Origin: Mercenaria mercenaria
Taxonomy: Eukaryota
DNA: 64,000 bases
Assembly: GCF_021730395.1 (NCBI RefSeq)
Contig: NC_069372.1
Span: 62,911,754 to 62,975,753, forward strand
Reading direction: 5' to 3'
The number at the start of each line of letters is the position of its first letter. Positions within the stretch are counted from its first letter, which is position 1. Below, piece by piece: positions 19,451 to 63,777 of the stretch. The translations under genes were made by a program, and so were the position numbers. The notes beneath the pieces were generated by a model. The model ran no database searches, had not been told where the DNA came from, and saw nothing but the letters and a program-made list of their open reading frames with translations.

Positions 19451-20039
19451 AGGAACCATTCCCTGAATGCAACACTGCTATTGATCAATGTCAAAAGTGC
19501 ACTCTGTAACAACCAATCAACTGATGTTATGTTAAGACTGGTCCACTATTTCAACTTAATGACATAAGGGTGCAATTATGATACCATGGTGGGAATAAAG
19601 CCCACAACATACAGGTTGTGCAGTGAAAGACTTCAACAAAATTCAAACTTTATTACTGGTCATTTCTACAGCCAACTATATCCTCACTCACAAGCCCACC
19701 ACTTCTCTAAATACTTCTGCAGTTAAAGGTGTACAGATTACAAAATTGTTGGCATCATATGCATTGACCACACTCTGGGTATTTAGATCTCAGAAAATGA
19801 TATACAATGGTAGAGCATAAAATAACACTAAATTATAGATAGTTATTAAAGCAGATGTTTATATCACAGACAAATACATTTAAGTCTTATGTCTTACAAA
19901 TAATACATTCAAAATAACTGTTCATAAGCAGAACATAACTGTTGTTCATGTCCCAACCACCATTTGTGCAAATATACACTTTGACATCCTATTATCTTTT
20001 CAATAAAACTTAACGGCATAATCATATAAGATAATCTGT

Positions 20040-31642: not shown

Positions 31643-32945
31643 CTGTATCTATGTGTTCCTGTGCTGCTTTTTGTTCAATTTTCCTGATCTCCAAGAGATT
31701 TGTTACATCTTTGAGACTATTGTTATCTTCGCCTAAAGCTTTTCCTTTGCTTTTCTTTGTTATTTCAGATTCAGGGTTGTTAGATTTGTTTCTATCCTTC
31801 ATTTTGGTCTTCTGTTCTTTGTTTAAATCATATCTTGACAATGAAGAACTCCTTGAACTTCTATGGAACCTAAACATCCTTGCTCTATCTCTTGATTGGC
31901 TTTTTGTGTATGTTCTTCTCCTTTGTATTCTTCTTCTTGGAGAGTTACTTCTGGATTTTCCAATAAATCTGTCTCTTGATCTTGCATACCTGTGTCTTGA
32001 TGTTCTTGGTGACAAACTTCTTGATCTTCTATGAAAAATACTTACTGGAGATCTTATTGATCTTCTTGGAGACCTACTTCTTAATCTTCTTGGAGACCTA
32101 CTTCTTAATCTTCTTGGAGATCTACTTCTTGATCTTCTCATAAATCTACTTCTTAATCTTCTTGGAGATCTACTTTTTGATCTCCTCTGAGATATACTTC
32201 TTGATCTTCTCATAAATCTACTTCTTAATCTTCTTCTTGATCTTCTCATAAATCTACTTCTTGAACTTCTCAGAGATCTAATTCTTGATCTTCTCAGAGA
32301 CCTACTTCTTGATCTTCTCAGAGACCTACTTCTAGATCTTCTCAGAGACCTACTTCTTGACCTTCTCCATGACCTACTTCTTGATCTTCTCGGAGACCCA
32401 CTTCTTGATCTTATCGGAGACCCACTCCTTGACCTTTTCAGAGACCTACTTCTTGACCTTCTCCGCGACCTACTTCTTGATCTTCTCGGAGACCCACTTC
32501 TTGATCTTCTCAGAGACCCACTTCTTGATCTTCTCAGAGACCCACTTCTTGATCTTATCGGAGACCCACTTCTTGATCTTTTCGGAGACCTACTTCTTGA
32601 CCTTCTCCGCGACCTACTTCTTGATCTTCTCGGAGACCCACTTCTTGATCTTCTCAGAGACCCACTTCTTGATCTTCTCAGAGACCTACTTCTTGATCTT
32701 CTCGGAGACCCACTTCTTGATCTTCTTAGAGACCCACTTCTTGATCTTCTCGGAGACCTACTTCTTGATCTTCTTAGAGACCCACTTCTTGATCTTCTCG
32801 GAGACCTACTTCTTGACCTTCCGCTAGACCTACTTCCTGATCTTCTAAAAGACCCACTTCTTGATCTTCTGAGAGACCTATTTCTTGATCGTCTCAGAGA
32901 CAAACTTCTTGATCTTCTATGTGACATACTGCTTGATCTTTTCAA
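31643..32945 (-). CDS. Probable continuation of the same RS domain ([22 protein letters not shown]...) ending ...[17 protein letters not shown] at a donor ACAG|gtaaag (31641-31642). It is separated from the upstream ORF by a frameshift within a ~570 bp tandem duplication.
   Basis: Track ORF 31569-32945. The same 60-aa block ([40 protein letters not shown]...) occurs in both ORFs. The DNA segment 32360-33000 is duplicated at 32930-33600. Confidence 0.55.
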
Positions 32946-33083
32946 AGACCCACTTCTTGATCTTCTTGGAAGCCTCCATCTTGATCTTCTTGGGGACCTA
33001 CTTCTTGATCTTCTTGGGGACCTACTTCTTGATCTTCTAGAGATCTACTTCTTGATCTTCTCGGAGACCCACTTCTTGATCTT

Positions 33084-36000
33084 TCAGAGACCCACTTCTT
33101 GATCTTTCAGAGACCCACTTCTTGATCTTTCGCGACCACTTCTTGATCTTTTCGGAGACCTACTTCTTGACCATTCTGCCGCAAACCTACTTCTTGATCT
33201 TCTCGGAGACCCACTTCTTGATCTTCTCAGAGACCCACTTCTTGATCTTCTCGGAGACCCACTTCTTGATCTTCTCAGAGACCCACTTCTTGATCTTCTC
33301 AGAGACCCACTTCTTGATCTTCTCGGAGACCCACTTCTTGATCTTCTTAGAGACCCACTTCTTGATCTTCTCGGAGACCTACTTCTTGACCTTCCGCTAG
33401 ACCTACTTCCTGATCTTCTAAAAGACCCACTTCTTGATCTTCTGAGAGACCTATTTCTTGATCGTCTCAGAGACAAACTTCTTGATCTTCTATGTGACAT
33501 ACTGCTTGATCTTTTCAAAGACCCACTTCTTGATCTTCTTGGAAGCCTCCATCTTGATCTTCTTGGGGACCTACTTCTTGATCTTCTTGGGGACCTACTT
33601 CTTGATCTTCTAAGAGATCTACTTCTTGATCTTGAAGACTTACTTCTTGATCTTCTCAGAGTGTTACTTCTTGATCTTCTTGCAAATCTACTTCTTGATC
33701 TTCTCAGAGACCTACTTCTTGATCTTCTTGGAGACTTTGATCTTGATATTCTAACAGACTTTCTTCTTGATCTTCTTTTAGGAGATTTACTTGCTGACTT
33801 CAAAAATGTCTTTGCTTTATTCCTTTTCAATGGTAGGGTGATTTTATTTTTTACAAAGTCTTTTGACTTTGTTTGTATTTTAGTTAAGCATACCTGATGA
33901 CTCCGACATCTTGCCATTTCGAAATCTGATTCATTTACCAACGAAGTATTCATAGAATAAGAGTATCCAGATGGTTCGGAAAAAGAGAAGGGTGTGTCTT
34001 CATTGATTTGTTTTGTTGAGTCAAATACATGACCTGTCTGTTTACCTCTCATTTGATCTGAGGACTGCATTTGTTCTACATACGTTTTCCTAAAATGATC
34101 ACTTCTCTCTGGGGAGACAGCAGCCTTTCTATAATGCTTAGGACTATCATCAAATGTCTCCATTTCTGCTTCAGCTTGGTGGCAAATTAGTGGTTCTGGT
34201 GCTCTATGGTTGAAACGAGGAAGAAGTTTAGCACGTTTTTTTGCTAAGTTTGGCGGAAGCATGTCTGGGTCAAAATCCGGTGCATAGTATTTGGATAATG
34301 TTTGGGTGTGCTGATAGCCTTCTGTTGATAATTTCTGTATTGTAGAACTATCAAATGCTGGACTGTCACCACTAGGTAAAGTTTGACTACAATCTTGTGC
34401 CATTTCACTATAATGAGGTGAAGTTGGGCTATAATGTGGTGAAGATGGGCTATAATGCGGTGAAGTTGGGCTATAATGTGGTGAAGTTGGGCTATAATGC
34501 GGTGAAGTTGGGCTATAACTTTGAGCAAGTGAGTTATAACTAAATGTAACAATTGGGTTATAACTTGAAACAACTGGCTCATAATTTGGAGCAACTGGGC
34601 TATAACTTGGAGCAATTGGGTTATAACTTGGAGCAAATGGATTATAACTTGAAGCAACTGGCTTATAACTTGTGGCAATTGGGTTATAACTTGAAGCAAC
34701 TGGGCTATAACTCGGAGCAGCTGGGTTATAACTTGGAGCTGTTGGGTTATAACTTGGAGCTGTCTGCTGGTAAGATTCTAACACAGATACTTCATTCAAA
34801 CTGGATTTAACATCACCTTCTTGTGTTGGTGCTACAAATGGCAATTTCTCAGCTGTATAGACTTCTTCCTCTTCATCCTCACAATAATCCTCTTCTTGGT
34901 CATCACAATAGTCTAGTAATTCATCAAATACTTGTGCTTTGTTTTCATGAATTTCTTTATCATCTTTATCCTTTCTCATTTTTTCCATTATTGGTCCATC
35001 AAAGGGTTGATTTGTCTCAGTTTCAGATTCAGAACACTCTAAAGGAACGGAAATATGTTCTGCAACAGGTGCACTCTTTCTTGCTGCCCAAGTTGCTAGA
35101 AGCTTTCCTGATGCAGGATAATTCTTTTTCTTCAGTCCTACTGACTCAGATATTGGTGAATGTCTTAAATCAGTTTGCAAAGAAGTGCCAGAAAATAAAC
35201 GCTGACTTTCACTCAGCTCTATCTCTGTCTTGGAATCAGAAGCCCAAGTTTGAAGTTCTGGTTCAACACAGAGGGATGATGATTTAACAGTAGTGCCCAT
35301 CATCAGAGTATCATTATAACTTAGAGGAATGTCCATTAATGCTAAATCTTCTTCACTTTCAGAGTCTGGTATGTTCACGACCTTTCTATGTCGCTTAGCT
35401 CCCCCTTTTCCAAGACCTTTACCACCTTTACCGCCTCTGCTTGTCCCAGACATGGACATATGCTGAGATCCCCCTTTTCCTATCCCTTTTCCTCCCCTTC
35501 CTCTCCCTGATACACCAGAGCCACCACTGGCACTCCTTATCCCTTTTCCTCCCCTAACTGTGCTTGATAAAGGCTGGACAGAAGCATCAATAGAAGCAGT
35601 TGAAGTAATATTATTAAATAAAAGATCAGGACTATTAGTATTACTGGCACTACGATCCCTATCTCTGTCTGTGTCACACATCTTTTTTCTTTTCTTTTTC
35701 AATTCTCTATCGGAATTGCTAGATGATGATTCTGAACAACTATCATCTTCATCTTCTTCAGAGCCAGAACTAGAACTACTACTGCTAGAACTACCATGTA
35801 TTCGCTCTATTTCACCAGTAGATGGGGCACTTTTTCGTGCTGCCTTTGTTGCTATTTGCTTTCCAGATGAACCTGTCTGTGAAGTCAATCTAGTTTTTGG
35901 ATCAAATATAGCTGTTGAATAATCTAGATACTTTTCAGTTCCTTTTCCGTTTGTGTCCCATCCTAAAGCATCCTCTAGTGCATTGTCAGAGAATAAATCA

Positions 36001-36133
36001 TCCTCTTCCAGCAGGGGAATTTCAGAGGCTTCTTTTAACGACATTTCCAATATATCTATATCCATATCAGAGATATTAATTTCTGGAGGCATTAAGCAAG
36101 GCATTTCAACATCTTCCATCAAACTTTTGTCAC
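33084..36133 (-). CDS. EF-hand/CTD-heptad/RS gene, giant exon (about 1016 codons): acidic N-terminal part, two histone H4-tail-like segments ([32 protein letters not shown]), SYNPxAP and YSPTSPH heptad arrays, then the RS domain. The frame is lost at 33084-33130 by 1-2 bp indels inside the 24-bp repeat.
   Basis: Track ORF 33084-36122 (TTG start). Acceptor ttttcacag|GTGACAAAAGTTTGATGGAAG lies 14 nt upstream, and G+GT keeps the frame from exon 39597-39695 (...PSEEQGDKSLMEDVEMPC). Confidence 0.75.
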
Positions 36134-36642: not shown

Positions 36643-38215
36643 ACAAGAGGACCATGATGGTCCTGAATCGCTCACCTGTCCCCACATGAACTGAGTATGA
36701 TGTCGTTTTTTCTATTATTTGACATAGTGACCTAGTTTTTGAGCTCATGTGACCTAGTTCTGAACTTGACCTAGATATCATCAAGATAAAAATTCTGACC
36801 AATTTTCATGAAGATCCATTGAAAAATATGGCCTCTAGAGAGGTCACAAGGTTTTGCTATTATTTTACATAATGACCTAGTTTTTAAAGACACGTGACCC
36901 AGTTTTGTACTTGACATAGATATCATCAAGGTGAACATTCTCACCAATTTTCATGAAGATCTCATGAAAAATATGGCCCCCAGAGAGGTCACAAGGTTTT
37001 TCTATTTATAGACCTACTGACCTAGTTTTTGAACGCATGTGACCCAGTTCAAAATTTGACCTAGATATCATCAAGGTGAACATTCTCACCAATTTTCATG
37101 AAGATCCATTGAAAAATATGGCCTCTAGAGAGGTCAAAATGTTTTTCTATGTTTAGACCTAGTGACCTAGTTTTTGACCACAGTTGACCCGGTTTCAAAT
37201 TTGACCTAGATATCATCAAAATGAACATTCAGACCAACTTTCATACAGATCCCATGAAAAATATGGCCTCTAGAGTTGTCACAAGGTTTTTCTATTATTT
37301 GACCTACTGACCTAGTTTTTGACCGCATGTGACCCAGTTTCAAACTTGACCTAGATATTATCAAGATGAACATTCTGACCAATTTTCGTGCAGATCCTAT
37401 GAAAAATATGACCTCTAGAGAGGTCACAAGGTTTTTCTATTATTTGACCTACTGACCTAGTTTTGGACCGGACGTGACCCATTTTCAAAGCTGATCTAGA
37501 TATCACCAAGATGAACATTCTGACCAATTTTCATGCAGATCCCATGAAAAATATGACCTCTAGAGAGGTCACAAGGATTTTCTATTATTTGACCTACTGA
37601 CCTAGTTTTTGACTGCAGTTGTTCCAGTTTCAAACCTGACCTAGATATCATCAAGATGAACATTCTGATCAATTTTCATGCAGATATCATGAAAAATACG
37701 GCCTCTACAGAGGTCACAAGGTTACAAATCCCAGTTTCGAACTTGACCTAGATATCATCAAGATAAACATTCTGACCAATTTTCATGAAGATCCCATGAA
37801 AAATATGACCTCTAGAGAGGTCACAAGGATTTTCTATTATTTGACCTACTGACCTAGTTTTTGACCGCAGTTGACCCAGTTTCAAACTTGACTCAGATAT
37901 CATCAAGGTAAACATTCTCACCAATTTTCATGAAGATCCATTGAAAAATATGGCCTCTAGAGAGGTCACAAGGTTTTTCTATTTTTAGACCTACTGACCT
38001 AGATTTTGACTGCATGTGACCCAGTTTCAAACTTGACCTAGATATCATCAAGGTGAACATTCTGACCAACTTTCATAAAGATCCCATGAAAAATGTGACC
38101 TCTAGAGTGGTCACAAGCAAAAGTTTACGCACGGACAGATGGACGGACAGACGACGGACGCTGCGCGATCACAAAAGCTCAACTTGTCACTATGTGACAG
38201 GTGAGCTAAAAACTT
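36643..38215 (+). mobile_element. Helentron-like element with a ~165 bp 'gacctagatatcatcaagatgaacattctgaccaattttcatgaagatcccatgaaaaatatggcctctagagaggtcacaagg' array, inserted into a different ~190 bp satellite (36420-36640 and 38216-39140), all inside an intron of the EF-hand/RS gene
   Basis: 5' aaacaagaggaccatgatggtcctgaatcgctcacctg; 3' gtttacgcacggacagatggacggacagacgacggacgctgcgcgatcacaaaagctcaacttgtcactatgtgacaggtgagctaaaaactt. Confidence 0.8.
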
Positions 38216-42189: not shown

Positions 42190-43620
42190 CTCTTGATTGA
42201 CTGCCATGCACCCTATCTCCTGAGATAACCAGATGGGCTCTATCTCCTGAGACAACCTGACATATCTTATGTCCTGAAATCACTAGATGGACTCCTATCT
42301 CCTGAGATAACTGGATGTGCCCTATCTCCTGAGATAACCAGATGGGCTCTATCTCCTGAGATAACCTGACATGCCTTATGTCCTGAAATCACTAGATGGA
42401 CTCCTATCTCCTGAGATAACTGGATGTGCCCTATCTCCTGAGATAACCAGATGGGCTCTATCTCCTGAGATAACCTGACATGCCTTATGTCCTGAAATCA
42501 CCAGATGGACTCCTATCTCCTGAGATAATCAGATGGACTCCAACCTCCTGAGATAACCAGTTGCCCTATCTCCTGAGATAACAAGATGAACTCCTACTTA
42601 CTGAGTTAACCGAATGTGCCCTATCTCTTGAGATAACCAGATGTACCATATCTGGTACCCTATCTCCTGAGATAACCAGTTTGACCCTATCTCCTGAGAT
42701 AACCTGATATGCCTTAATATGTCCCGAGGTCACTAGATGGGCCCTTTCTCCTGAGATAACCAGATGGACTCCTATCTCCTGAGATAATCAGGTGGACTCC
42801 TATCTCCTGAGATAATCAGGTGGACTCCTATCTCCTGAGATAACCTGATATGCCTTAATATGTCCCGAGGTCACTAGATGGGCCCTTTCTCCTGAGATAA
42901 CCAGATGGACTCCTATCTCCTGAGATAATCAGATGGACTCCTATCTCCTGAGATAACCAGATGGACTCCTATCTCCTGTGATAACCAGATGGACTCCTAT
43001 CTCATGAGATAATCAGGTGGACTCATCTCCTGAGATAACCAGATGGACTCCTATCTCCTGAGATAATCAGATAGACTCCTATCTCCTGAGATAACCAGAT
43101 GGACTCCTATCTCCTGAGATAACCAGATGGACTCCTATCTCCTGAGATAATCAGATGGACTCCTATCTCCTGAGATAACCAGATGGACTCCTATCTCCTG
43201 AGATAATCAGGTGGACTCCTATCTCCTGAGATAACCTGATATGCCTTATGTCCTGAGATAACCAAATGTGCCCTATCTCCTGAGATAACCAGATGGACTC
43301 CTATCTTCTGAGTTAACTGAATGTACACTATCATTTGAGATAATCAGATTTACCTTATCTGGTAACCTATCTCCTGAGGTAACCAGATTGACCCTATCCC
43401 CTAAGATAACCTGATATGCCTTTATGTCCTGAGATCACTAGATGGGCCCTATCTCCTGAGATAACCAGATGGTCTCCTATCTCCCGAGATAATCAGATGT
43501 GCCTTATCTCCTGAGGTAACCAAATGGCCCTATCTCTCCAGATAACCAGATTCACAAAATCTCCCAAGATAACTAGATAAGCTCCTATCTCCAGAGATAA
43601 CAAGATGGGCTCCTATATGG
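42190..43620. repeat. 28-29 bp minisatellite, about 48 units (cctatctcctgagataaccagatggactc), lying in an intron of the EF-hand/RS gene
   Basis: Read directly; the near-palindromic core is tatctcctgagata. Confidence 0.9.
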
Positions 43621-46972: not shown

Positions 46973-47048
46973 CTTCTATTTGTGCCAAGATGTTCCCAAT
47001 CGGTTCTGCATGGTTCTGTTCATAAAATTTTCCTAGTTTATCATACAC
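46973..47048 (-). CDS. EF-hand/CTD-heptad/RS gene, upstream coding exon (VYDKLGKFYEQNHAEPIGNILAQIE), ends in phase 1
   Basis: Minus-strand acceptor catttatttttcag|GTGTATG and donor AGAAG|gtaagttgcg; the phase joins exon 44601-44999 (G+aa gives GAA). Confidence 0.55.
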
Positions 47049-47099
47049 CTGAAAAATAAATGTGTGACTTGTAAATCAAGTTGTCAACTTTATTACCCT

Positions 47100-47240
47100 G
47101 CTGAATTTCTATGATGAACTCTTCCATCTTTCAATATGGACTGTACCATTAGCTGTTAAAAGGAGTGCTTACCACAAAGATACTGACTGAATGGCGAACA
47201 GTGCAGATCCAGATCAGACTGCATGCAAAGGCAGAATCAA
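47100..47240. mobile_element. Copy of a MITE-like family (further copies at 48240-48400, 48790-48990, 51990-52230) with the internal palindrome gcagactgca...tgcagtctg and the end tract ccttttaacagttaatggtactgtccaaat
   Basis: Four related copies were read directly, in both orientations. Confidence 0.55.
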
Positions 47241-49002
47241 TAGCTTTTAGCATGATAAGGGTTTATTGTTTCATGCAAAGAACCCATACCTCATAATGAC
47301 ATAACTTCTGTGTATAGACCCTGAATATCAAAATCTGACTCCAAAAATTGAAAGGAAATGTATTTTTGTATAGCTTATAGCAACTACTTGGCAGAATCTG
47401 GCAGCATGACCTAACATTCAATTATGATATGCAATGGTTTAAGAAATGAAATATAACAAAACTATGTTTTAATAATAATGTAAAAGAGCCGCTCTGACCC
47501 TCATACAGGATTTTAATATCAATACAGGAAATGAAAATATAAAATGTACACAACTGGGACAAACACTATTCATATTTTCAAACAGGAAGTTATCAATATT
47601 CTATTGTTTATAAATCTTGTTTTCTATTCTCATATATTTTGACCGATAGTGAAGATGATAGGAGTTTAAACACAAAAGGAAGTTATTTTTGGTAGTTAAA
47701 CTAGATAATGATAGGATTAAAATGTTTTAATTGTACCTTTTGTGCTCTGGATATTTATCTACCTGCTGATAATATTACCCCTGTATTATGTTTGGTTTCT
47801 TGTCAACTGTTGGTTTCTAACGTAATAAAAAAAAAATGTTTTCAGTTTCAAGTAAAGGTGGTTATTTGTAGTCGACTATGAAAAGGAAATGGAATTCAAA
47901 ACTTTAAAATTCCTCTAACCACTTCTGGTTTGTTCCGTAACGGCAGTCAAAATGTTAGCTGAAAACCTACAAAGGATTGAATCAGCCTCGAATACTTAAT
48001 AGTGCTTGATCCACCTTTTGTGTAACAAACATTTCTTGATTTCTCCTTAAGGATGTACCAGTGTTGTTGTTTTTTTTTCAGGATATCCACCATTTTGAAA
48101 AATGTTTCTTCGAATATTTCTTTCTAACAACATTTTTATCAAAAATTAATGCTAAATTATCAAAATATGGCCAATTATGTACAATTTAACTCTTATCCTG
48201 CTAAATTTCTAAAATTGAATGGTCCATCATTGAATTTGGACAGTACCATTTATCATTCCAAGGGGTGTTCACTGAAAATTTACTAACTGAACAGCAAGCA
48301 GTGCATGCAGAGTGCAGAACATGTGCAGGCTGATCTTGGTCTGCACTGGTCGCAAAGGCAGAATCGCAATTGCCTTCAGCAGGCTAAAGGTTAACCAAAC
48401 AGATTCTACTTGTTGTGAAGAAAAAAATTTCACCCTTATTTTTGCCTGGCATTTGCCTAAAATTGATGTGGATTAGTTTTGAATTTAGCACCAAGAAAAA
48501 AAAAATTAATGGGGTATTTTTCATTGTAATATGTAGCCTTTTTGAAAACAACAAATTTCAAAAATTAAATCTTTACTTTACTAGTGACTAAGATTGTTAC
48601 AAACCTTTCAGGATATACAATCTAGCAAGAAAGCAACATTTTCATGTAAAAAATTCGCAAATTTTGCCTGATTTTCACAATGAGAAAAATACTTTTTTTG
48701 GCAATAAAACTGACATTATAATCAAAGGTATCTGAAAAAAACTGAAACTGTTCCTATTATCAACTTCATCAATCTCTACTCTAGTATGAAGTTTAACCCT
48801 TTCCATGCTGGACATGACTGGTTCTGCCTTTGTGACCAGTGTAGATCATGATCAGCCTGCAAATCCGTGCAGTCTGATCATGGTCTGCACTGTTCGATAT
48901 TGATCTTTTTGGTAAGCACCCCTTTTAACAGTTAATGGTACTGTCCAAATAGGAAGAAGGGCAAGTTCATTATAGAAATTTAGCAGAGTAAAGGGTTAAA
49001 AA

Positions 49003-50340
49003 ACAAGAGGACCATGATGGTCCTGAATCGCTCACCTCTTCCCACATGACCCAGATTTGAGTATGACGTCATTATTTGACATAGTGACCTAGTTTTTGAG
49101 CTCATGTGACCCAGTTTTGAACTTGACCTAGATATTATCAAGATAAAAATTCTGACCAATTTTCATGAAGATCCATTGAAAAATATGGTCTCTACAGAGG
49201 TCACAAGGTTTTTCTATTATTTGACCTATTGACCTAGTTTTTTAAGGCACCTGACCCAGTTTCAAACTTGACCTAGATATCATCAAGGTGTACACTCTGA
49301 CCAATTTTAATGGAGATCCGTTCACAAGTATGGCCTCTAGAGAGGTCACAAGGTTTTTCTATTTTTAGACCTGCTGACTTAGTTTTTGTCCGCACATGAC
49401 CCTGTTTCGAACTTGACCTAGATATCATCAAGATGAACATTCAGACCAATTTTCATACAGATCCCATGAAAAATATGGCCTTTAGAGAGGTCACAAGGTT
49501 TTTCTATTATTTGACCTACTGACCTAGTTTTTGAAGGCACGTGATCCAGTTTCGAACTTGACCTAGATATCATCAAGATGAACATTCAGACCAACTTTCA
49601 TACAGATCCCATGAAAAACATGGCCTCTAGAGAGGTCACAAGGTTTTTCTATTTTTAGACCTACTGACCTAGTTTTTGATCGCACGTGACCCAGTTTCGA
49701 ACTTGACCTAGATATTATCAAGATGAACATTCAGACCAACTTTCATACAGATCCCATGAAAAATATGGCCTTTAGAGAGGTCACAAGGTTTTTCTATTAT
49801 TTGACCTACTGACCTAGTTTTTGAAGGCACGTGACCCAGTTTCGAACTTGATCTAGATATCATCAAGGTGAACGTTCTGACCAATTTTCATGAAGATCTC
49901 ATGAAATATATGGCCTCTAGAGAGGTCACAAGGTTTTTCTATTTTTAGACCTACTGACCTAGTTTTTGAAGGCACGTGACCCAGTTTCGAACTTGACCTA
50001 GAAATCATCAAGGTGAACATTCTGACCAATTTTCATGAAGATCTTGTGAAATATATGGCCTCTAGAGAGGTCACAAGGTTTTTCTATTTTTAGACCTACT
50101 GACCTAGTTTTTGAAGGCACGTGACCCAGTTTCAAACTTGACCTAGATATCATCAAGGTGAACATTCTGACCAACTTTCATAAAGATCCAATGAAAATTG
50201 TGACCTCTAGAGTGGTCACAAGCAAAAGTTTACGGACGGACGGACGGACGCACGCACGGACAGACGGACGACGGACACCGGGCGATCACAAAAGCTCACC
50301 TTGTCACTTTGTGACAGGTGAGCTAAAAAAGCTGCAATTC
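49003..50340 (+). mobile_element. Helentron-like element, the same subfamily and satellite as 36643-38215
   Basis: 5' aaaacaagaggaccatgatggtcctgaatcgctcacctcttcccacatgacc; 3' gtttacggacggacggacggacgcacgcacggacagacggacgacggacaccgggcgatcacaaaagctcaccttgtcactttgtgacaggtgagctaaaaaagc. Confidence 0.8.
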
Positions 50341-53195
50341 ATGAAAAACACTGTTACAGGTTACGTGGAATGTCAAATTCTATAATTCAGCTTCAGTTCT
50401 TTATATATCGGGAAATCCCTGAATTTTATTATTAAGAAGTTTTGCTACAGATGTAAGAATTCATTTTAAAGGATGTTACAATAGTTCAAAATGGCAGAAA
50501 CAAACATTTGTTTCTGTGCAGCCTATTCAGATACATATTTTTTTGAAAAAGGAAGTTTCATTACCAAAACTACCTGACTATAACAAGGATTTTAAGATAT
50601 AGAGGTAAATATAAATGTTGTGTTGCTTTCTTTAAAGGAATATGACACTGTTTAAAACCTTTTAAAAAGTGCTTGGAAATGATACTTACAATTAATTATT
50701 TAAATGAGCTAATAGGAAAACTCTTAGTGGTTTATTTGTTTTTGGTTAATGTACATTTTTCAACACTATTTCAGTTTTTCAGTTTAACCTAACTGGTGTC
50801 CCTGGATTCTGTACCAGTACTAACCTGTCCTCCACAAGTAACTGCCAACTTCTTCACATGAATAAGAAGTGGAGGATGAAATGACTTCAGAAAACTCTTA
50901 AGGTTTAAATAAAAAGAGTATGATACACAAATCACACTGCTATCTTGAATTTTAGTTCTTTTTTTTTTCAAGAGTAGACACATGTTCTTTACAAGGTCTT
51001 TGATATCTTATTACTTTAATTAAAGGGTATTTTGGTATTCTGGTATATTTTCATGAAATACAATGTTGATTTATGACTTTTCCTACTGTTAAAGCCCTGC
51101 TTCTCGGCTACTCAAATTCTATTGTGTGTATGCAACCCATGATTACAATAGGTAACAGTTAATGGCCACACTTTAGCACGCAAGACCACAGATATTTTAT
51201 AGAGAATTTTATATAAAATAGACTCAATTTTGACAGGCGTCACTGTTCATAGTCAGGATTTTCATGCTTTTTCAGTGACAATTTAAGGTTGAAAGGTAGG
51301 ACTGGAGCAGGTCTTTAAAACAGAGTTTTGTCCAGGAGGGATTTTGTCCAGCCCCCATGGTTTACTTATACTATTTTACTAAGCCAGTTAAAGGAAACAA
51401 AAATAGATTGTTATAATCATTTTATATGACTAGATGGGAAGTTGTGTGCACATGTGAAGAACTGTCTAATCAAGAATTCGACCATAAATCTCTAACTATC
51501 TTACTTTGTCTGTGAAAATTATAAACAAAGTTGAAATCAGACTTGGCACATGGTAACCAAAGTAATTTTATGAATTTATGAATTAATGGCAACCCATGAG
51601 TTAATTTATTAAAATGACAACAATAGTATCTTTCTAATGTTGAAATTTCGACACGCTAAATAATTCCAAATAACGACTTAAAATCAGCTTGAAATGTGTG
51701 GATCAGTTTAATAATGGGCAAGTATCTCAGAAACAAGCATATAGATGTGATATTATATTTCATTTCAAAATATCATAGATCATTATGTTTATTTACAACT
51801 GTGAGAAGCTTCATTAAACTGTATATTGTAGAAAAATTTCCATCCACAAAAATGTCATCAAAATTGTGATTTCGCCATGAACTCCAATTATGAAAACTAA
51901 AAGTGTAAAGTAAAATTTTTAAACCAGTCTGGCAAAAAATAAAGCATATGACCCCTCTTTTTTTATTTGCCAAATGCTTTAAGTATGTTAATTCTGAAGT
52001 TCTGAAACATCAGGGTTTAATCCTCAGCATGCTGGACACGATTGATTCTGCCTTTGCGACCAGTGCAGATCATGATCAGACTGCACAGATGTGCAGACCT
52101 GTCCTGATCGCTGTTGAATCAGTATCTTTTTGGTATGCACCCCTTTTAACAGTTAATGGTACTGTCCAAATTGAAAGATGGACAAGTTCATTAAAGAAAT
52201 TTAGCAGGGTAAGGGTTAATCAAATTCTAAGTTATAGACAAAATTTTAATCTGAATGTGCAGAACTATCTTAAGTCTGTATTATTTTGTAATTTAGTAAA
52301 ATATATTTCAGAAACAAGGAAATAATGAGTCAATTTAAGATTGGAATGTCAACACATTTCGGCCCATGTTACAGACACTTGATACAGAAAAAAAAGGCAC
52401 TGATTTAAGAAACTATTTTTTTCTCCTACAGTGGGTAATTTTCCCAATTTGAAAGTCTAAGGCTTATTTCCAATATTTTGGGGAAATCTTTATTTCAAAA
52501 TTGTCAATAATTAACACTGAAAACATGTGATTTCCAGAATTTTATACCTCTAATTGAATTTAAATATAACCGCAGTAAACAAGGGCAAGAGGAAATTATG
52601 GTTTGGTTTCTTGACTTTTATCCTTTTACAAAGTATATCTTATAAATTTTCAGAAACTACGGTATGTGTATGACTCAAGAGGTATTAACAAGGCATGTGT
52701 AATGAACAACTCAACAATCTTTGGATTTCCATAACTGTTTCTAGCCACAGATGAAGTGTCTTCTGGTCTTCACCACATTTCATTCTAGGTAATAATAAAC
52801 ACTCTGGATTATAAAGGATGACTTTACTGTAAAGAAGTTCTCCTCCCAGAAATGTCATGATGAAACATCTACATGCCTAATTACAGCCGAGATTATACCA
52901 TTAACAAACTTTGGGACAGCAAACAGAAAAGTGATTGCTAAACTAACTTTCAGCGAAGCCTACAAAACTTAAAGTGAATTCAAGAAGATCAACAAACTAC
53001 AAGCTGAAAGTCGAGCTTCACCCTGAAAACCATTCTGGAAATATAATGGCACACAACAACCAGATTACGTATCAGTTCAGACCTGAAACCGCTAATACAG
53101 GTATTATAGTGGTATGTAATGGAAAAGTTAGAAGTTGCCACAATCAACAATAAATTTCTCTCAAGCTTGTACTCTAAACCTGTAGCTGAAGCATC

Positions 53196-54110
53196 ATGGT
53201 AAAGGACCGTCTTGCAGAGTTACAGGCGAAACATGCAGAATTTTGCCAGGCCGATGAAAAGACGGAAATAGATAAAAGTGTCGCTCACTTCTCAAATTTG
53301 GAAATTCAACTAGATTTGTGTCTTCACAAGGTGACACAAATTAGCAAGAAAATAAGAGCAGTTAATAATGATGTAGAACAAATGAAAGCACTGCAGAAAG
53401 ACATCCTATCAAATCCTTTAGAGGATCATAAAGAGGTAATAAGACTCGAGAAAACATCGGATCAAATATTTAATGCTGCCTCAACAGTTCAGAAAGAAAT
53501 AACTCAGTATAGACAAGAAGTGGTTGAAATGCTGATGCACAAATCACATGAAAAATTAATCAAGAATCACCTGAACAAATTAGAAGTTGACCTAACCAAA
53601 GCCAGAAATAATTTCCGAGCAGCACAAGTTGAGTATATTGAAAAAACACAAAAATTACACCAGAGGGAGTACAACATAATGACAGGACATGATGATCATG
53701 ATGACCCTGATGATCCAGATAAAATACACACACCCTTACCTGCTGAATTTCTTGGAAATTATTTTGTCGAAGCTGAGAGGATCAAAATGGAGCTGCGTGA
53801 AATCAAAGCGCGTGACACACAGATAAAGAAAATTGAAGAAAGTGTGACAGAAGTAAACCAACTGTTTAAGGAAGTTAATGCATTACTGATGGAACAAGGG
53901 GAGAAGCTTGATACAATTGAAAAATGTGTTGAAAACAGCGTGAATTATGTTCAGGAAGCGAATATACAACTGAAGCAGGCAAGCAAATATCAGGACACTG
54001 CTCGAAGGCGAAAGATATGTTGCATTGGCTTCTTAGTCGCCATACTAGCTACTGTAGGTATTGTAATTGCCATAGTGATAATGTTACAGAATGATGAAAG
54101 TGAAATGTAG
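53196..54110 (+). CDS. Single-exon syntaxin (Qa t-SNARE), 304 aa: N-peptide MVKDRLAEL (the syntaxin-1 DRxxEL motif), Habc region, His/Asp-rich insert (GHDDHDDPDDPD), SNARE motif IKKIEESVTEVNQLFKEVNALLMEQGEKLDTIEKCVENSVNYVQEANIQLKQASKYQ, and a C-terminal TM anchor ARRRKICCIGFLVAILATVGIVIAIVIML
   Basis: This is the complete track ORF with an ATG in good context (gcatcATGG). The layout matches syntaxin-1 (..[57 protein letters not shown]..). Confidence 0.8.
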   Translation: MVKDRLAELQAKHAEFCQADEKTEIDKSVAHFSNLEIQLDLCLHKVTQISKKIRAVNNDVEQMKALQKDILSNPLEDHKEVIRLEKTSDQIFNAASTVQKEITQYRQEVVEMLMHKSHEKLIKNHLNKLEVDLTKARNNFRAAQVEYIEKTQKLHQREYNIMTGHDDHDDPDDPDKIHTPLPAEFLGNYFVEAERIKMELREIKARDTQIKKIEESVTEVNQLFKEVNALLMEQGEKLDTIEKCVENSVNYVQEANIQLKQASKYQDTARRRKICCIGFLVAILATVGIVIAIVIMLQNDESEM

Positions 54111-55369
54111 TTTTATTCATTAGTAAATTATTAACAGTTTAAACCTTTTTATTTCACATCATTGCAAATGAAGTAAGAATAATTTATGCTAAAAAGAAAT
54201 TGCTATTTATAAGTTTATTTTAAACCTATTTATTTCAAACAACTGTCAATGGCTTAATGGCTGTAACTGTAGTCCTTGTTGCCGCGGTTATTATGTTCCG
54301 TTACGATGGAGGTGACATACATAAACAATAAATTGAATTTTTTCATTCCGGATAACTGAAGATGAAATATAAGCTTGTGTCAACTACACTCACGGACTCA
54401 ATGCTAGACTTCTGACCACCCATTGTATCTAAGTGTGGAATTGTGAAAACTAACAAACATTAATTTCATTGTTACCAATATATTAAGAAGGGCTACTTTA
54501 AATTATATTTGAGTATTCTTACGAGTGCAGATTTATCAGTAAAATAAAACACTGTAGGCAGGGAATTCAGTGTATGCTGTATATTGTGAATTTAGTATTA
54601 TTTGTGGGACAGTAATATTGTATATCTGTGATAGAGAAAATAGGAAAGTAAACATTAGAAAGCTATTTGCTCGTGCACTGAGTTACAGTGAAATTTTTCA
54701 ACACATGTTCATTTGAACCAAGTTTTAAGGTAGGATGTAGAAATGACACTTAAAAATGATGACAAGTCTGAAAATAAGTGTTATATATTGGCAAACTGAT
54801 TTTCTCCACTATTTTCAAAACAACATTCATAATTTATCAGCCCTGGTCACCTTTTGTCATAATCACATGTCTCATTTAACAGGCCAATTGTGCAATAAAA
54901 TAGATTAACATCATGAGTATTTAACAATTTTGATGAACTTGACATAATGTTATGGTCTCAAGACCTTGATCTTTAAGTCAAAGTCACTACTAAAGTTGAG
55001 GGTCTAAAAATATGTTACTTATTATTATGATAATAATTGTCTCAGTTTTGTAAAATTTTGTTTTGCTATTGACAATATTAATATATAAAACTTTTGTTCA
55101 TTTATCGTAACAAATTCTTTTTTTAAAAATCTGTTCATTCACCAAATTTCACAAGGGACTTATTTTAGCATCATTCACTATCTAATATTCACGAAAGTGC
55201 TATTACTGAAAGAAAACCAGACCAATTTTGCAAAAAATTCTATCTCATGCAATATTGTTAACTCATTAATATTCATGAGGGACTAATTTTCATGGTTTCT
55301 GTGGTTGCTTCAGTCCATGAAATTAATTTCTGAAGAATCAGCAATTTTTTTGCTTGATTCTATTTTTAA

Positions 55370-56100
55370 CTAGAATGTTTCTGTAGGACACGGGGTGTGC
55401 CCCCACTGGTACATTTGTCACAAATAAGGGGCAATAATTCAAATGTTTGCAGTCTTAAGCGGGTATAGCCTCAACAAAAATTTTATATAAAGGTTTCATT
55501 ATTCAAGGCCATATACTTTTTGAGTTATGAGCATCACAAACAAAAAATCCACTATTTTGGATATTTCAAGGGCCGTAACTCTGTAATTTGCGATATAATC
55601 TCAAGAACAAAGCCAAGTTTGCAAGATCACATCATGATAAAGACTCATGCAAGGTTTCATGAATTTACATCAAATACTTTTTGAGCTTGGTGTGTCACAA
55701 GGTGAAAATGTGCATTTTTAACTATTTCAGGGGCCATAACTCTGGAAATAGGGGGCGAAGCCAGATGAAAAATAGGAGGTGTGCAAGTTCATATCATGAT
55801 TAAGACTCATGCAACATGCAAGGATTCATCAATTTATATCAAATACTTTTTGAGCTATGCGCATCACAAGGTGAAAATGTGCATTTTTGACTATTTCAGG
55901 GGCCATAACTCTGGAAATAGGAGGTGGAGCCAGACAAAAAATAGGTGCGCATGTTCATAATTATCATGATAAAGAGTCGTGCAAGGTTTCATCAATTTAT
56001 ATCAAATACCTTTTGAGCTAGGCCCGTCACAAACTTTTTTCAGATGGACGGACAGACAGGACCAAATCTATATGCCCCCTCCACTGAGTGGTGGGAGCAC
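55370..56100 (+). mobile_element. Helentron-like element with a ~190 bp tandem array (catcacaaggtgaaaatgtgcatttttgactatttcaggggccataactctggaaatagg...) and a 3' end ggacggacagacaggaccaaatctatatgccccctccactgagtggtgggagcacaaaaatt
   Basis: A (GGAC)n microsatellite plus a terminal palindrome ccactgagtgg are present; the 5' boundary is uncertain. Confidence 0.45.
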
Positions 56101-57569
56101 AAAAATTTGAAATCCAAAATTTTTTTGTCCACAAAATTAATAACTTTAAAGTAAGTAAAATTTAAAAATAAGTGGTTTTATCCTTGCAAAACTATCTGAA
56201 TTCACAGTAACTCTACTATACTGAACAGCAAAAGAAACTATCCAGTTTTATGACTGGGATATTTTTTATTTAAAAACTTAATTTATAAATCACTTGTGTT
56301 TTTCATATCACATTACACTTGAAGAACTTCACGTGTAAATTTTTAAAACAATCAGTCAACAGTGAAGTCAGTAGTCCCACAATAGCCGTTTTGCACGAAA
56401 TTTATGTGAGCCTGTAATTAACAATTTTCTTTGTGAAATTTTAATGTCACTGGAAATATTGATAATTGGCTAACTCGAAAAACAGCAAAAAGTTTAAAAA
56501 ATATTGTTGGTTGCACCGCATGACTGAATCAAATTTAGCGCGAGTCCCCAATTGGGATGTTACAATGCAACTGACGCATAGAAGATATAGTCTTTCAAAC
56601 GTCTATTGTGGGACAACAGACTTCATTGTTGATTGATTTTTAAAAATTTATCACGTGAAGATCTTCAAGTGTAATTTTGGTATGAAGAAACAATTCAAAT
56701 TTGAAAAATTAATTTTTTATTTCGAAATATACCAGGTATACATCTGGATAGTTTCTTTTGCTTTCAGTATATTAACAGACTGACTACAAAACTACATTAA
56801 AACATCCATCACTCGAGGTCACAAGGGGATGAGAAAAATGCTCTAGTTATCCTTGGTTTTGAGTGATTCATACATAGAAAATATAAGAAAATAGCAATGT
56901 ATCACTTAAATTACTGTGGCTAGCTTGGGTCCTCAAGCCATTAATGCCCAACTGAACAGTATTTCACAATAACACCAGTCTTACAACCATATCCTGACTG
57001 AGTTGAAACTTTTAAACTATACATATTGGTTTAGTAAATTGATGGCATCATTTCCAGAAAATATTATTATCTTTACAAAATGGTACAAAATTTGTTGTTT
57101 TGTTTATACATTATTTTTAAAAGTACCTTAACCTTTTTGAAACTTACTGGTATAAATAGCATTTGTGACTAGCAATTAATTTACTGAAAAGGCATTACTA
57201 TTGCTTGGTTGTTTGTCATTAGCAATATCACTTTTCATGTCATTTAAAATATACTATAAATTATGTGTATTTGTCTATATATCTATAAAAGCAACCTTTT
57301 TGGTCACATGGTTTATTTCTTACTTTTATATTATAACCTTTGCTCAAAATATATATGACAGCTTCATAATGACTTCCCCCATAATCACATTTTTCAAACC
57401 AGTTGTTTCAATATTTATCATAGTATGTTGTGCTTGTTGTATTTTTAAAAAATAAAAACTACATAGAATTTCTAGCTTTAATTGTTTTGTATTGATATCA
57501 ACAGATAATTTATTAACAAGAATGTATCTAAAAGTTTGAAATAAAATAATATGCAGTACACTTAACCTG

Positions 57570-60500
57570 TTCTAAAGTATCGCTATCTGACTTGATATCC
57601 TCCATATACTCAGAGAGCCCATTGTATGTTTCGAATCAGTACTTACCAGTTCTAAAGTATCACTATCTGACTTGATATCTTCTTTATACTCAGAGAGCCC
57701 ACTGTATGTTTCGAATCAGTACTTACCAGTTCTAAAGTATCACTATCTGACTTGATATCTTCTTTATACTCAGAGAGCCCACTGTATGTTTCGAATCAGT
57801 ACTTACCAGTTCTAAAGTATCGCTATCTGACTTGGTATCCTCCATATACTCAGAGAGCCCACTGTATGTTTCGAATCAGTACTTACCAGTTCTAAAGTAT
57901 CACTATCTGACTTGGTATCTTCCTTATACTCAGAGAGCCCACTGTATGTTTCGAATCAGTACTTACCAGTTCTAAAGTATCACTATCTGACTTGATATCC
58001 TCCATATACTCAGAGAGCCCACTGTATGTTTCGAATCAGTACTTACCAGTTCTAAAGTATCACTATCTGACTTGGTATCCTCCATATACTCAGAGAGCCC
58101 ACTGTATGTTTCGAATCAGTACTTACCAGTTCTAAAGTATCACTATCTGACTTGGTATCTTCCTTATACTCAGAGAGCCCACTGTATGTTTCGAATCAGT
58201 ACTTACCAGTTCTAAAGTATCACTATCTGACTTGGTATCTTCCTTATACTCAGAGAGCCCACTGTATGTTTCCATCCAGTACTTACCAGTTCTAAAGTAT
58301 CACTATCTGACTTGATATCCTCCATATACTCAGAGAGCCCACTGTATGTTTCGAATCAGTACTTACCAGTTCTAAAGTATCACTATCTGACTTGGTATCC
58401 TCCATATACTCAGAGAGCCCACTGTATGTTTCGAATCAGTACTTACCAGTTCTAAAGTATCACTATCTGACTTGGTATCTTCCTTATACTCAGAGAGCCC
58501 ACTGTATGTTTCGAATCAGTACTTACCAGTTCTAAAGTATCACTATCTGACTTGGTATCCTCCATATACTCAGAGAGCCCACTGTATGTTTCGAATCAGT
58601 ACTTACCAGTTCTAAAGTATCACTATCTGACTTGGTATCTTCCTTATACTCAGAGAGCCCACTGTATGTTTCGAATCAGTACTTACCAGTTCTAAAGTAT
58701 CACTATCTGACTTGGTATCTTCCTTATACTCAGACAGCCCACTGTATGTTTCCATCCAGTACTTACCACCAGTTCTAAAGTATCACTATCTGACTTGGTA
58801 TCTTCCTTATACTCAGAGAGCCCACTGTATGTTTCCATCCAGTACTTACCACCAGTTCTAAAGTATCACTATCTGACTTGATATCCTCCTGTATTCTCTG
58901 AGAGTCCAGTATATGTTTCCATCCAGTACTTACCACCAGTTCTAAAGTATCACTATCTGACTTGGTATCTTCCTTATACTCAGAGAGCCCACTGTATGTT
59001 TCCATCCAGTACTTACCACCAGTTCTAAAGTATCGCTATCTGACTTGATATCCTCCTGTATTCTCTGAGAGTCCAGTATATGTTTCCATCCAGTACTTAC
59101 CACCAGTTCTAAAGTATCACTATCTGACTTGATATCCTCCTGTATTCTCTGAGAGTCCAGTATATGTCTCCAACCAGTACAAACTAGTTCTAAAGTATCG
59201 CTATCTGACTTGATATCCTCCTGTATTCTCTGAGAGTCCAGTATATGTTTCCATCCAGTACTTACCACCAGTTCTAAAGTATCACTATCTGACTTGATAT
59301 CCTCCTGTATTCTCTGAGAGTCCAGTATATGTTTCCATCCAGTACTTACCACCAGTTCTAAAGTATCACTATCTGACTTGATATCCTCCTGTATTCTCTG
59401 AGAGTCCAGTATATGTTTCCATCCAGTACTTACCACCAGTTCTAAAGTATCGCTATCTGACTTGATATCCTCCTGTATTCTCTGAGAGTCCAGTATATGT
59501 TTCCATCCAGTACTTACCACCAGTTCTAAAGTATCGCTATCTGACTTGATATCCTCCTGTATTCTCTGAGAGTCCAGTATATGTTTCCATCCAGTACTTA
59601 CCACCAGTTCTAAAGTATCACTATCTGACTTGATATCCTCCATATTCCCTGAAAGTCCAGTATATGTTTCCATCCAGTACTTACCACCAGTTCTAAAGTA
59701 TCACTATCTGACTTGATATCCTCCTGTATTCTCTGAGAGTCCAGTATATGTCTCCAACCAGTACAAACTAGTTCTAAAGTATCGCTATCTGACTTGATAT
59801 CCTCCTGTATTCTCTGAGAGTCCAGTATATGTTTCCATCCAGTACTTACCACCAGTTCTAAAGTATCACTATCTGACTTGATATCCTCCATATTCCCTGA
59901 AAGTCCAGTATATGTTTCCATCCAGTACTTACCACCAGTTCTAAAGTATCACTATCTGACTTGATATCCTCCTGTATTCTCTGAGAGTCCAGTATATGTC
60001 TCCAACCAGTACAAACTAGTTCTAAAGTATCGCTATCTGACTTGATATCCTCCATATTCCCTGAAAGTCCAGTATATGTTTCTATCCAGTACTTACCACC
60101 AGTTCTAAAGTATCACTATCTGACTTGATATCCCCCTGTATTCTCTGAGAGTCCAGTATATGTCTCCAACCAGTACAAACTAGTTCTAAAGTATCGCTAT
60201 CTGACTTGATATCCTCCATATTCCCTGAAAGTCCAGTATATGTTTCCATCCAGTACTTACCACCAGTTCTAAAGTATCACTATCTGACTTGATATCCCCC
60301 GTATTCTCTGAGAGTCCAGTATATGTCTCCAACCAGTACAAACTAGTTCTACAGTATCGCTATCTGACTTGATATCCTCCATATTCCCTGAAAATCCAGT
60401 ATATGTTTCCATCCAGTACTTACCACCAATTCTAAAGTATCACTGCCTGACTTGATATCGTCCATATTCTCTGAGAGCCTAGTGTACGTTTACGACCAGT

Positions 60501-61130
60501 ACTTATCAGTTCTAAAGTATCACTGTCTGACTTGATATCTTCAATAAATTCTGAGAGCCCATAGTATGTTTCCGACTAGTACTCACCAATTCTAAAGTAG
60601 CACTGTCTCACTTGATATCTTCAATAAACTCTGAGAGCCCATATGTTTCCAGCCAGTACTTACCAATTCTGAAGTTTCACTGCCTGATTTGATATCTTCC
60701 ATATACTCATTCAGCCCAGTATATGTTTCCGACAGGTACTTACCAGTTCTGAAGTATCACTATCTGGCTTGATATCCTCCATTTACTATTAGAGTCAAGT
60801 GTATGTTTCCAACCCGTACTTACCAATGCTTAAGTATCACTGCCTGTCTTGATATTCTCAATTTACTGTGAGAGCCCAGTATATGATTCCAGCTGGTACT
60901 TACCAGTCCTAAAGTATCACTGCCTGTCTTGATATCCTCCATATTCTCTGAAAGTCCAGTATATGTTTCCAACCAGTACTTACCACCAATTCTAAAGTAT
61001 CACTGCCTGGCTTGATATCCTCCATATTCTCTGAGAGCCCTGTGTATGTTTCTGACTAGTACTTACCAATTCTAAAGTATCACTGTCTGACTTGATATCT
61101 TCAATAAACTCTGAGAGTCCAGTGTATGCT
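57570..61130 (-). repeat. 84-bp satellite, about 42 units in at least two subtypes (57570-58730 and 58740-60400, the latter with a 3-unit higher-order pattern), decaying toward 61130. Minus-strand unit: GAGGATATCAAGTCAGATAGTGATACTTTAGAACTG|GTAAGTACTGGATGGAAACATATACTGGACTCTCAGAGAATACAG
   Basis: Track ORFs on the minus strand repeat EDIKSDSDTLELVVSTGWKHILDSQRIQ every 28 aa. The unit is colinear with the end of exon D (EDIKSDSDTLEL) plus its intron start gtaagtactagtcagaaacatacacagggctctcagagaatatggag. Confidence 0.85.
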
Positions 61131-61207
61131 TCCTCTGCTTGGACCATGGAGTAACTTTCTTGTATCTCCCCCTTCCGTAAAATTTCCCTCACTAAAGCTT
61201 TTGGATC
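61067..61207 (-). CDS. Exon D: DPKALVREILRKGEIQESYSMVQAEEAYTGLSEFIEDIKSDSDTLEL (141 nt). Its last 36 nt plus the first ~48 nt of the following intron are the founder of the adjacent 84-bp satellite.
   Basis: Acceptor tgtttcattttag|GATCCAAAAGC and donor TTAGAATTG|gtaagtactag; it overlaps track ORF 60992-61192. Confidence 0.6.
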
Positions 61208-61666: not shown

Positions 61667-61777
61667 CTCGTCTTTATCCTCAACACCAGGTTCCCAGTCT
61701 ATATATGGTAGAATGTCAACAGTTTCTTTCTTAATAAGATCATCTATAGAGGGAATGATTGAAACATCACATACATC
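61667..61777 (-). CDS. Exon C: DVCDVSIIPSIDDLIKKETVDILPYIDWEPGVEDKDE (111 nt, phase 0-0)
   Basis: Acceptor gttattttcag|GATGTATGTG and donor GACGAG|gtatgtaaac. Confidence 0.55.
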
Positions 61778-62922: not shown

Positions 62923-63024
62923 CTGTTGTCTGTCCTCTATGGCCACAAAGCTGGTGTATGATGTCACAATGCTGTATTTCTTGCTCAGGTCAATAATGTA
63001 CTGTTTCTTCTCATTCTTTAAAAC
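62923..63024 (-). CDS. Exon B: VLKNEKKQYIIDLSKKYSIVTSYTSFVAIEDRQQ (102 nt, phase 0-0)
   Basis: Acceptor ttattattttgtag|GTTTTAAAG and donor ACAACAG|gtttatgt (weak). The plus-strand track ORF 62939-63157 is antisense to it. Confidence 0.45.
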
Positions 63025-63696: not shown

Positions 63697-63777
63697 CTGG
63701 TGTTTGACTCTGTCATCATCTAGAATACCATTCTCAAAATCTGTGATCACAGCCCTCGCTGTCAGCTGGTGTAGCAT
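63697..63777 (-). CDS. Exon A of a minus-strand gene: MLHQLTARAVITDFENGILDDDRVKHQ (81 nt, phase 0-0)
   Basis: Acceptor ttgttgttaacag|ATGCTACACC and donor CACCAG|gtaagtgtcc. Confidence 0.5.

Follow-up and report, generated by a model that had tools for sequence, protein, structure and literature searches.

A large minisatellite in intron D of a PARP4-type bivalve gene, probably grown from a duplicated exon–intron boundary

Minisatellites whose first monomer spans an exon–intron boundary have been described in the human genes F7, IFI6 (6-16), CBS, LMNB2, and PDGFA (PMC1557585). In F7, the variable number tandem repeat (VNTR) of intron 7 has a 37-bp unit (4 nt of exon and 33 nt of intron) present in 5-9 copies, with the first monomer lying across the boundary of exon 7 and intervening sequence 7 (IVS7); only the first donor is used, and the array has served to argue for 5'-to-3' scanning (PMC1557585). 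Intron 2 of IFI6 (6-16) carries 25 pseudo-sites, IVS13 of CBS 15-20 repeats, LMNB2 10-15 repeats of 100 bp, and intron 4 of the PDGF gene (PDGFA) 16-18 repeats of 81 bp; splicing in IFI6 and CBS also draws on the two pseudo-sites nearest the authentic donor (PMC1557585). Here we describe a tandem array of this kind on the minus strand of a 64-kb window of Mercenaria mercenaria DNA (contig NC_069372.1; "the window" denotes the whole 64,000-nt stretch that was analysed). The array adjoins exon D of a gene that, judged by its predicted protein, is a bivalve-type PARP4 (vault PARP) orthologue. It is very probably an intronic minisatellite that arose from a tandemly duplicated 80-bp segment of exon D and intron D and was amplified in waves to 43 extra copies.

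As in F7, the first monomer straddles the boundary, the authentic donor is followed by identical intronic pseudo-donors, and the array is non-coding. The PARP4 array differs from that of F7 in its 80-bp unit (67 nt of exon and 13 nt of intron), its 43 extra copies, its subtypes, and its gradient of divergence; furthermore, the splicing behaviour of F7 was demonstrated, whereas that of the PARP4 array is predicted. Reiteration of the donor in each monomer is shared with IFI6, CBS, LMNB2, and PDGFA, and the unit sizes (81-100 bp) and tens of copies in those genes are comparable; however, the genes and the phylum are different, the copies are more numerous than any quoted for the human genes, and the unit is mostly exon-derived. 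Thus, the array form, a first monomer that holds a real exon end and its donor, and a non-coding remainder, which characterize boundary-spanning minisatellites, are all present. We regard the array as most likely a new, unusually large, and neutral example of a minisatellite kind that is already known. The novelty implied by the initial annotation of this DNA does not hold, because the same kind has been described for the five human genes (PMC1557585).

Two other types of repeat bear comparison. Tandem exon duplication, as in repeat proteins and mutually exclusive exons, likewise involves local duplication of exon sequence together with a splice site, but the PARP4 unit has no acceptor, is mostly not a multiple of 3 nt, and undergoes neutral decay. 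Dispersed short satellite-like arrays are reported for bivalve genomes, among them Helentron-associated repeats of Crassostrea gigas (PMC7492417, PMC8268682). Like these, the PARP4 array is a short tandem array in gene-rich bivalve-type DNA, of which the window holds many; unlike those families, which are reported to be multi-locus and linked to mobile elements, its unit stems from the host's own exon and has no other copy in the window or in the collections searched.

The array is delimited by Tandem Repeats Finder at 57560-61133, head-to-tail on the minus strand, with a period of 80, 43.9 copies, 90% matches, 1% indels, and a score of 4241. A scan of the whole window with a 27-nt core of the unit (≤3 mismatches) returned 41 matches, all on the minus strand at 57570-61096, against 0 expected by chance from dinucleotide-preserving shuffles. 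Both results agree with the tandem array adjoining exon D that was noticed initially. The core scan found no unit in the rest of the 64-kb window. In metagenome contigs, a collection not known to contain this species, a search for exact patterns of the core gave 0 matches. At 3.57 kb, with units of 77-84 bp, the array has the dimensions of a minisatellite (10-100 bp unit, tens of copies, kilobase scale). It is a minisatellite by size, found at one place in the window; the initial label of "satellite" is not supported by a single 3.5-kb array with no other copy in searchable data, and classical satellite DNA would call for arrays of tens of kb to Mb or for many loci of the unit across the genome. 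Cutting the minus strand at each exon-like/intron-like boundary yielded the exon D copy and 43 further units (U01-U43), with lengths of 80 bp (21 units), 83 bp (9), 84 bp (8), 81 bp (4), and 77 bp (1). The commonest length, 80 bp, is also that of the diverged, presumably oldest, copies.

When all units are aligned to the 3' end of exon D, similarity to the exon extends over 67 nt (GGAAGCATACACTGGACTCTCAGAGTTTATTGAAGATATCAAGTCAGACAGTGATACTTTAGAATTG; unit consensus GGAAACATACACTGGGCTCTCAGAGTATATGGAGGATATCAAGTCAGATAGTGATACTTTAGAACTG), beyond its last 36 nt. These last 36 nt are the best-conserved part of the unit (83-97% identity), and the 31 nt of exon D upstream of them are 71-84% identical in every unit; homology then ends sharply, with the next 13 nt upstream in the exon matching the rest of the unit at 1/13 positions. 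Because the 31 exonic nucleotides align and the 13 nt upstream of them do not, the ancestral unit consists of 67 nt from the end of exon D and 13 nt from the start of intron D (GTAAGTACTGGTT), giving 80 bp. Each unit, read in the exon D frame, yields a 22-residue relative of EAYTGLSEFIEDIKSDSDTLEL. At its far end, the array stops inside the 13-nt intron-derived part:

57560-57566, minus strand: degenerate last donor copy, CAG/GTTAAGT, followed by unique intron sequence.

The onset of unique sequence after this last donor is consistent with a unit that includes only ~13 nt of intron. The ancestral intron is predicted to have started with GTAAGTACTG.. and to have continued into the unique sequence now at 57559 and below. 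The motif GCATA occurs both in the exon and just past the last unit, as possible breakpoint microhomology; the register is ambiguous, and no claim is drawn from it.

The host gene is represented by four minus-strand exons (A-D) with canonical splice sites, all in phase 0, and by a further exon (E) beyond the intron that holds the array:

63697-63777, minus strand: exon A (MLHQLTARAVITDFENGILDDDRVKHQ), flanked by aacag/ and /gtaagt; matches the homologues P0001-P0005 and PARP4 proteins; the 5' part of the gene lies beyond the window.
62923-63024, minus strand: exon B (VLKNEKKQYIIDLSKKYSIVTSYTSFVAIEDRQQ), flanked by tgtag/ and /gtttat; kept in all homologues.
61667-61777, minus strand: exon C (DVCDV...VDILPYIDWEPGVEDKDE), flanked by ttcag/ and /gtatgt; conserved.
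61067-61207, minus strand: exon D, 141 nt (47 codons), with phase 0 at either end and tttag/ and /gtaagt as flanks; the founding repeat copy is its 3'-terminal 67 nt (61067-61133).
61061-61066, minus strand: authentic 5' splice site of intron D, TTG/GTAAGT, the most upstream of 44 reiterated junctions.
47049-61066, minus strand: intron D, 14,018 nt by exon coordinates; the array is its first 3.5 kb (first quarter).
46973-47048, minus strand: exon E (VYDKLGKFYEQNHAEPIGNILAQIE), whose flanks are tttcag/ and /gtaagt and which provides the acceptor for exon D; located by tblastx against the related contig L001 (from ~17199).

Exons C and D alone gave no match as a query in a word-indexed protein search, in which exons A-D together retrieved the five short homologues P0001-P0005, covering exons A-C. 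One of these five comes from the related 6-Mb contig L001, where a counterpart of exon D lies 1.7 kb downstream of the exon C match (tblastn, E = 1.3e-8). This orthologue (L001:11876-12016) reads cag/GAT...AAG/gtacag, has exactly 47 codons in the same phase, and has no tandem array after it. An exhaustive HMMER search with the peptide of exons A-E matched 276 proteins, including a protein of Sinanodonta woodiana, models from Mytilus coruscus, and Nematostella vectensis proteins named PARP4. Query residues 1-169 (exons A-E) match residues 1138-1307 of S. woodiana KAL3858028.1 in a single uninterrupted alignment at 53% identity. This protein (2293 residues) has the domain order BRCT, PARP, VIT, VWA, and ubiquitin-like, and the matched region lies after the VIT and VWA domains, as befits a PARP4 host gene; the catalytic part of the gene falls outside the window, the PARP4 assignment coming from the region of exons A-E.

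An alignment of six sequences covers the final 22 residues of exon D in every one of them, with an invariant A and Y, and exon E follows directly. The junction of D with E is contiguous in the PARP4-type proteins P0007 and P0006 and is present in the full-length PARP4 of S. woodiana and M. coruscus. The initial annotation made its proposal depend on exon D being a real exon, and the comparative evidence (the same length and phase in L001, and the PARP4 proteins) speaks for a real exon. Exon D is thus genuine by comparison, and its end, as the L001 orthologue and the PARP4 alignments show, is ancestral PARP4 coding sequence. Because that end is ancestral, copying ran from the exon to the array. 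The core of the initial proposal, an array seeded by a segment spanning the exon D/intron boundary, is retained, with the 3' end of exon D as the first copy.

Along the array, the units fall into three blocks:

60427-61066, minus strand: proximal units U01-U08, old and mutually diverged copies, mostly 80 bp; neighbour identity 75-86%.
58687-60426, minus strand: middle units U09-U29, comprising an 83/84-bp subtype that has GTG inserted ahead of GTAAGT, an 80/81-bp dead-donor (GTTTGT) subtype, and chimeric 83-bp units.
57567-58686, minus strand: distal units U30-U43, a homogeneous 80-bp subtype; neighbour identity 93-100%.

Where two subtypes had been proposed, the alignment resolves at least five unit classes: the diverged 80-bp proximal copies; 83-bp and 84-bp classes, both with GTG inserted before GTAAGT and the latter with a further 1-nt insertion; an 80/81-bp class in which mutation has turned the donor into GTTTGT; chimeric 83-bp units, with a 5' part from the 84-bp class and a 3' part from the distal class; and the homogeneous 80-bp distal class. 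Units U19-U22 are 98-100% identical to their neighbours. The copies adjoining the exon are indeed the most diverged, as first reported, and the gradient is on the exon side only. A three-unit higher-order structure, also reported, survives as one local trimer (83+84+81, U15-U17); elsewhere there are 83+81 dimers (U09-U14), and the three-unit signal of the distal block is marginal (self-identity 0.973 at a 240-bp offset vs. 0.965 at 80 bp). A regular three-unit repeat as a general feature was rejected, order being only local (U09-U17).

The first duplication of the 80-bp segment would have taken place by slippage or by unequal exchange/crossing-over, with later growth by unequal crossing-over or conversion, mostly away from the exon; the chimeric units suggest that unequal exchange or gene conversion took place. 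The oldest copies would then be those adjoining the exon, and the middle and distal blocks would be younger or homogenised. Among the subtypes, one would have gained the 3-nt GTG, one a single nucleotide, and one would have lost its donor (GTTTGT). More speculatively, the exon-side copies may have stayed un-homogenised because exchanges with the exon copy would alter the protein.

The main consequence of the array is to place 35 GTAAGT pseudo-donors, with the same sequence as the authentic donor, downstream of it. The 43 reiterated junctions read GTAAGT (35), GTTTGT (5), GTGAGT (1), ATAAGT (1), and GTTAAG (1); the perfect pseudo-donors, which are identical to the authentic GTAAGT, divide into 18 that read G/GTAAGT and 17 that read GTG/GTAAGT. 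The initial statement that the host transcript contains dozens of reiterated donors is therefore borne out, although the consensus 5' splice site ascribed to each unit is perfect in 35 of the 43 junctions only. A T-rich upstream tract like that of real acceptors is missing from all 364 AG dinucleotides in the array: in the 20 nt before these AGs, the pyrimidine fraction is ≤0.60 vs. 0.60-0.70 in the real acceptors of the gene (a small set, n=5), and the T fraction is ≤0.40 vs. 0.45-0.65 in the same five. On this evidence, the array consists of donors without partner acceptors; a pseudo-donor could do no more than rival the authentic donor for the acceptor of exon E. Read-through from exon D meets a stop at 60992-60994, ahead of the first pseudo-donor (60987), and any use of a pseudo-donor would thus give a premature-stop transcript. 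The human precedents suggest that the authentic donor, the most upstream one, is in use, with the pseudo-donors silent or rarely used.

Compatible with the proposed origin, but in our judgement unlikely, is co-option of the array, whether as a U1 small nuclear ribonucleoprotein (snRNP) platform that protects the 14-kb intron from premature cleavage or affects its retention, or through use of pseudo-donors that tunes PARP4 via nonsense-mediated decay. GTAAGT is kept in 35 of the 43 copies, diverged proximal ones included, each pseudo-donor product would hold a premature stop, and human IFI6 and CBS do make use of their first two pseudo-sites (PMC1557585). However, retention of donors is expected from recent amplification alone, the GTTTGT subtype (5 units) was amplified despite the loss of its donor, which argues against selection for donors, and the L001 orthologue works without an array. 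It is quite unlikely that the array is kept for its 35 GTAAGT sites (as a U1 snRNP landing pad, or to produce copy-number-tuned, stop-containing PARP4 transcripts) and that, together with duplications in L001 and M. coruscus described below, it reflects recurrent modulation of the gene.

Expression of the array as coding sequence, either as a long repeat exon or as micro-exons (for example, units of 42 nt, YMEDTKSDSDTLEL, or of 45 nt, with splicing between a donor and the AG of a later unit), is most improbable. Many units maintain the frame of exon D over their 3' 42-45 nt, the donors are perfect, and the 84-bp units are open, with a stop-free stretch of 252 codons in the middle units (58945-59700). 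This stretch is a run of 84- and 81-bp units that happen to have one stop-free frame, the chance of which is roughly one in three per strand (estimated from base composition), and its translation found no homologue at E≤0.01 among 5.8 billion proteins, a collection not known to include this species. Thus, the open 28-codon frame of the initial annotation exists as a long stop-free stretch, but it is confined to the 84-bp subtype, chance alone would provide about one such open frame per 84-nt unit, and a meaning for it is not supported. The lengths of 31 of the 43 units (77, 80, or 83 bp) are not multiples of 3 and break the frame, and in the distal 80-bp block every open frame closes, at 47 codons. 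In the exon D frame, there are stops in the proximal units U03, U04, U06, and U08, and 12 units are frameshifted by a 1-nt insertion; the differences of U01-U08 from exon D are spread evenly over codon positions (26:21:30 for positions 1:2:3), with no third-position excess. In-frame stops, frame-breaking lengths, and even codon-position changes together indicate that the copies decay neutrally, without coding constraint.

Nor does any AG of the array have the T-rich tract that a coding tandem repeat or duplicated exon would call for. Splicing within a unit (a 38-nt intron and a 42-nt in-frame exon) was considered separately and rejected on intron length, a GAG or weak AG context, and the missing pyrimidine tract; the candidate branch site would lie 11 nt from the donor, and an intron of ~38 nt is too short by spliceosomal constraints. 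Homologous PARP4 proteins pass directly from exon D to exon E, and the monomers other than the first are intronic and non-coding, the array lying wholly inside the 14-kb intron D.

It is scarcely credible that copying ran the other way, from a pre-existing intronic satellite or mobile-element repeat that supplied one of its units as the 3' end of exon D. In favour of this reading, tandem arrays abound in the window, and bivalve genomes are reported to have many dispersed short satellite-like arrays (PMC7492417, PMC8268682). Against it, exon D has identical length and phase in the array-free L001, PARP4 of Sinanodonta, Mytilus, and Nematostella can be aligned to its final 22 residues, and neither the window nor the searches of the protein collection and the metagenome contigs yielded a further copy of the unit. 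Hardly tenable, too, is the anatomy of the initial annotation, in which every unit is 84 bp long and holds 36 nt of exon, 48 nt of true intron, a donor, an acceptor-like end, and a meaningful 28-codon frame: no part of the unit is better conserved than the final 36 nt of exon D, and there are eight 84-bp units and an open run of 252 codons, but the claimed intron is mostly the exon-derived part of the next copy (the true split being 67+13), with 31 nt that align to exon D coding sequence and read ETYTGLSE.. in the exon frame, 21 of the 43 units are 80 bp (as are the diverged, presumably oldest, ones) and only 8 are 84 bp, and the ACAG end is present in only 12.

Several points weigh against an origin by duplication and amplification of the exon D/intron D segment as set out above. 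Divergence is confined to the exon-proximal edge of an array whose distal edge is homogeneous, a pattern not predicted by a model in which array edges escape homogenisation, so that recent distal growth must be assumed. The copy number is assembly-dependent, and the claim that this is the only place where the unit occurs rests on the 64-kb window, a protein-level search, and one metagenome contig scan. The expected choice of donor draws on mammalian precedents and may differ in molluscs.

Duplications across splice junctions were also seen in PARP4-like genes elsewhere. At L001:5297-5558, a 103-bp unit (2.5 copies, 93% match) comprises a whole exon of the related PARP4-like gene with its acceptor and donor; it reads tag/GCAACACTG...GGAAAG/gtaagtgtcactatgttgtctag/GCAAC..., and the "introns" between copies are only 22-24 nt. 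In M. coruscus, residues 1-150 of P0006, P0154, and P0155 (CAC5400317.1-19.1) form 4.5 tandem copies of a 32-residue unit, which consists of MLHQLTARAVIRDYEDGVFSS (exon A) and YKFITSLYFVQ, the latter resembling a translated pyrimidine tract and acceptor; this suggests a repeat that spans the intron/exon A junction. With such duplications in L001 and M. coruscus in the same gene, events of this type seem common in such genomes, and the PARP4 array is less surprising.

The PARP4-like gene of the window also has a 1012-codon open exon at 33084-36122 (minus strand), with RS repeats continuing to ~31569 and a 24-bp array at 32053-33776. This exon contains RNA polymerase II C-terminal domain (CTD)-like heptads (Pfam RNA_pol_Rpb1_R, E = 5e-6) and a long RS-repeat region. 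It also contains candidate mimics of histone tails: GKGGKGLGKGGAKRHRKV, which agrees with the H4 tail at 18 of 19 residues, and KQIATKAARKSAPSTGE and GKLLATWAARKSAPVAE, two segments similar to the H3 tail. Comparable H3-like, CTD-like, and RS segments are present in Sinanodonta and Mytilus PARP4-like proteins. Antisense to the gene, inside intron D, an intronless 304-codon open reading frame (53196-54110, plus strand) matches the Pfam family SNARE (E = 6e-10) and, weakly, Syntaxin, and ends in a hydrophobic tail at the C-terminus. A syntaxin-like gene, either nested or retroposed, may be present here. A 742-codon open frame at 2086-4311 (plus strand), continuing to 4647, encodes an RVT_1 reverse transcriptase domain (E = 1e-38) and is probably a copy of a non-long terminal repeat (non-LTR) retrotransposon.

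The window as a whole has a high density of tandem arrays, with many different periods, which agrees with what is reported for bivalve genomes (PMC7492417, PMC8268682). Short arrays with periods of ~145, 157, and 166-169 bp extend over 7260-56032; several share sequence, and two lie in intron D. Examples of these arrays, and two further minisatellites, are as follows:

15497-16408, 24010-24887, 36707-38117, 49071-50222, and 55631-56032: short arrays that resemble the mobile-element-associated satellite-like repeats of oyster.
42212-43616: minisatellite with a 28-bp unit, ~51 copies, 73% match.
18868-19458: minisatellite with a 45-bp unit, 13 copies.

The PARP4 array provides a clean example, dated by its structure, of minisatellite growth from a single exon-derived duplication. 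Otherwise, it is probably an ordinary and neutral by-product of the high rate at which genomes of this type duplicate sequence locally in tandem. Boundary-spanning arrays serve as natural experiments on how one of several identical 5' splice sites is selected by the spliceosome. With 35 perfect pseudo-donors, more than in any human example quoted in PMC1557585, and with subtypes that differ in donor quality (GTAAGT, GTGAGT, GTTTGT, ATAAGT), the PARP4 array offers a stringent test case for splice-site choice outside the vertebrates.

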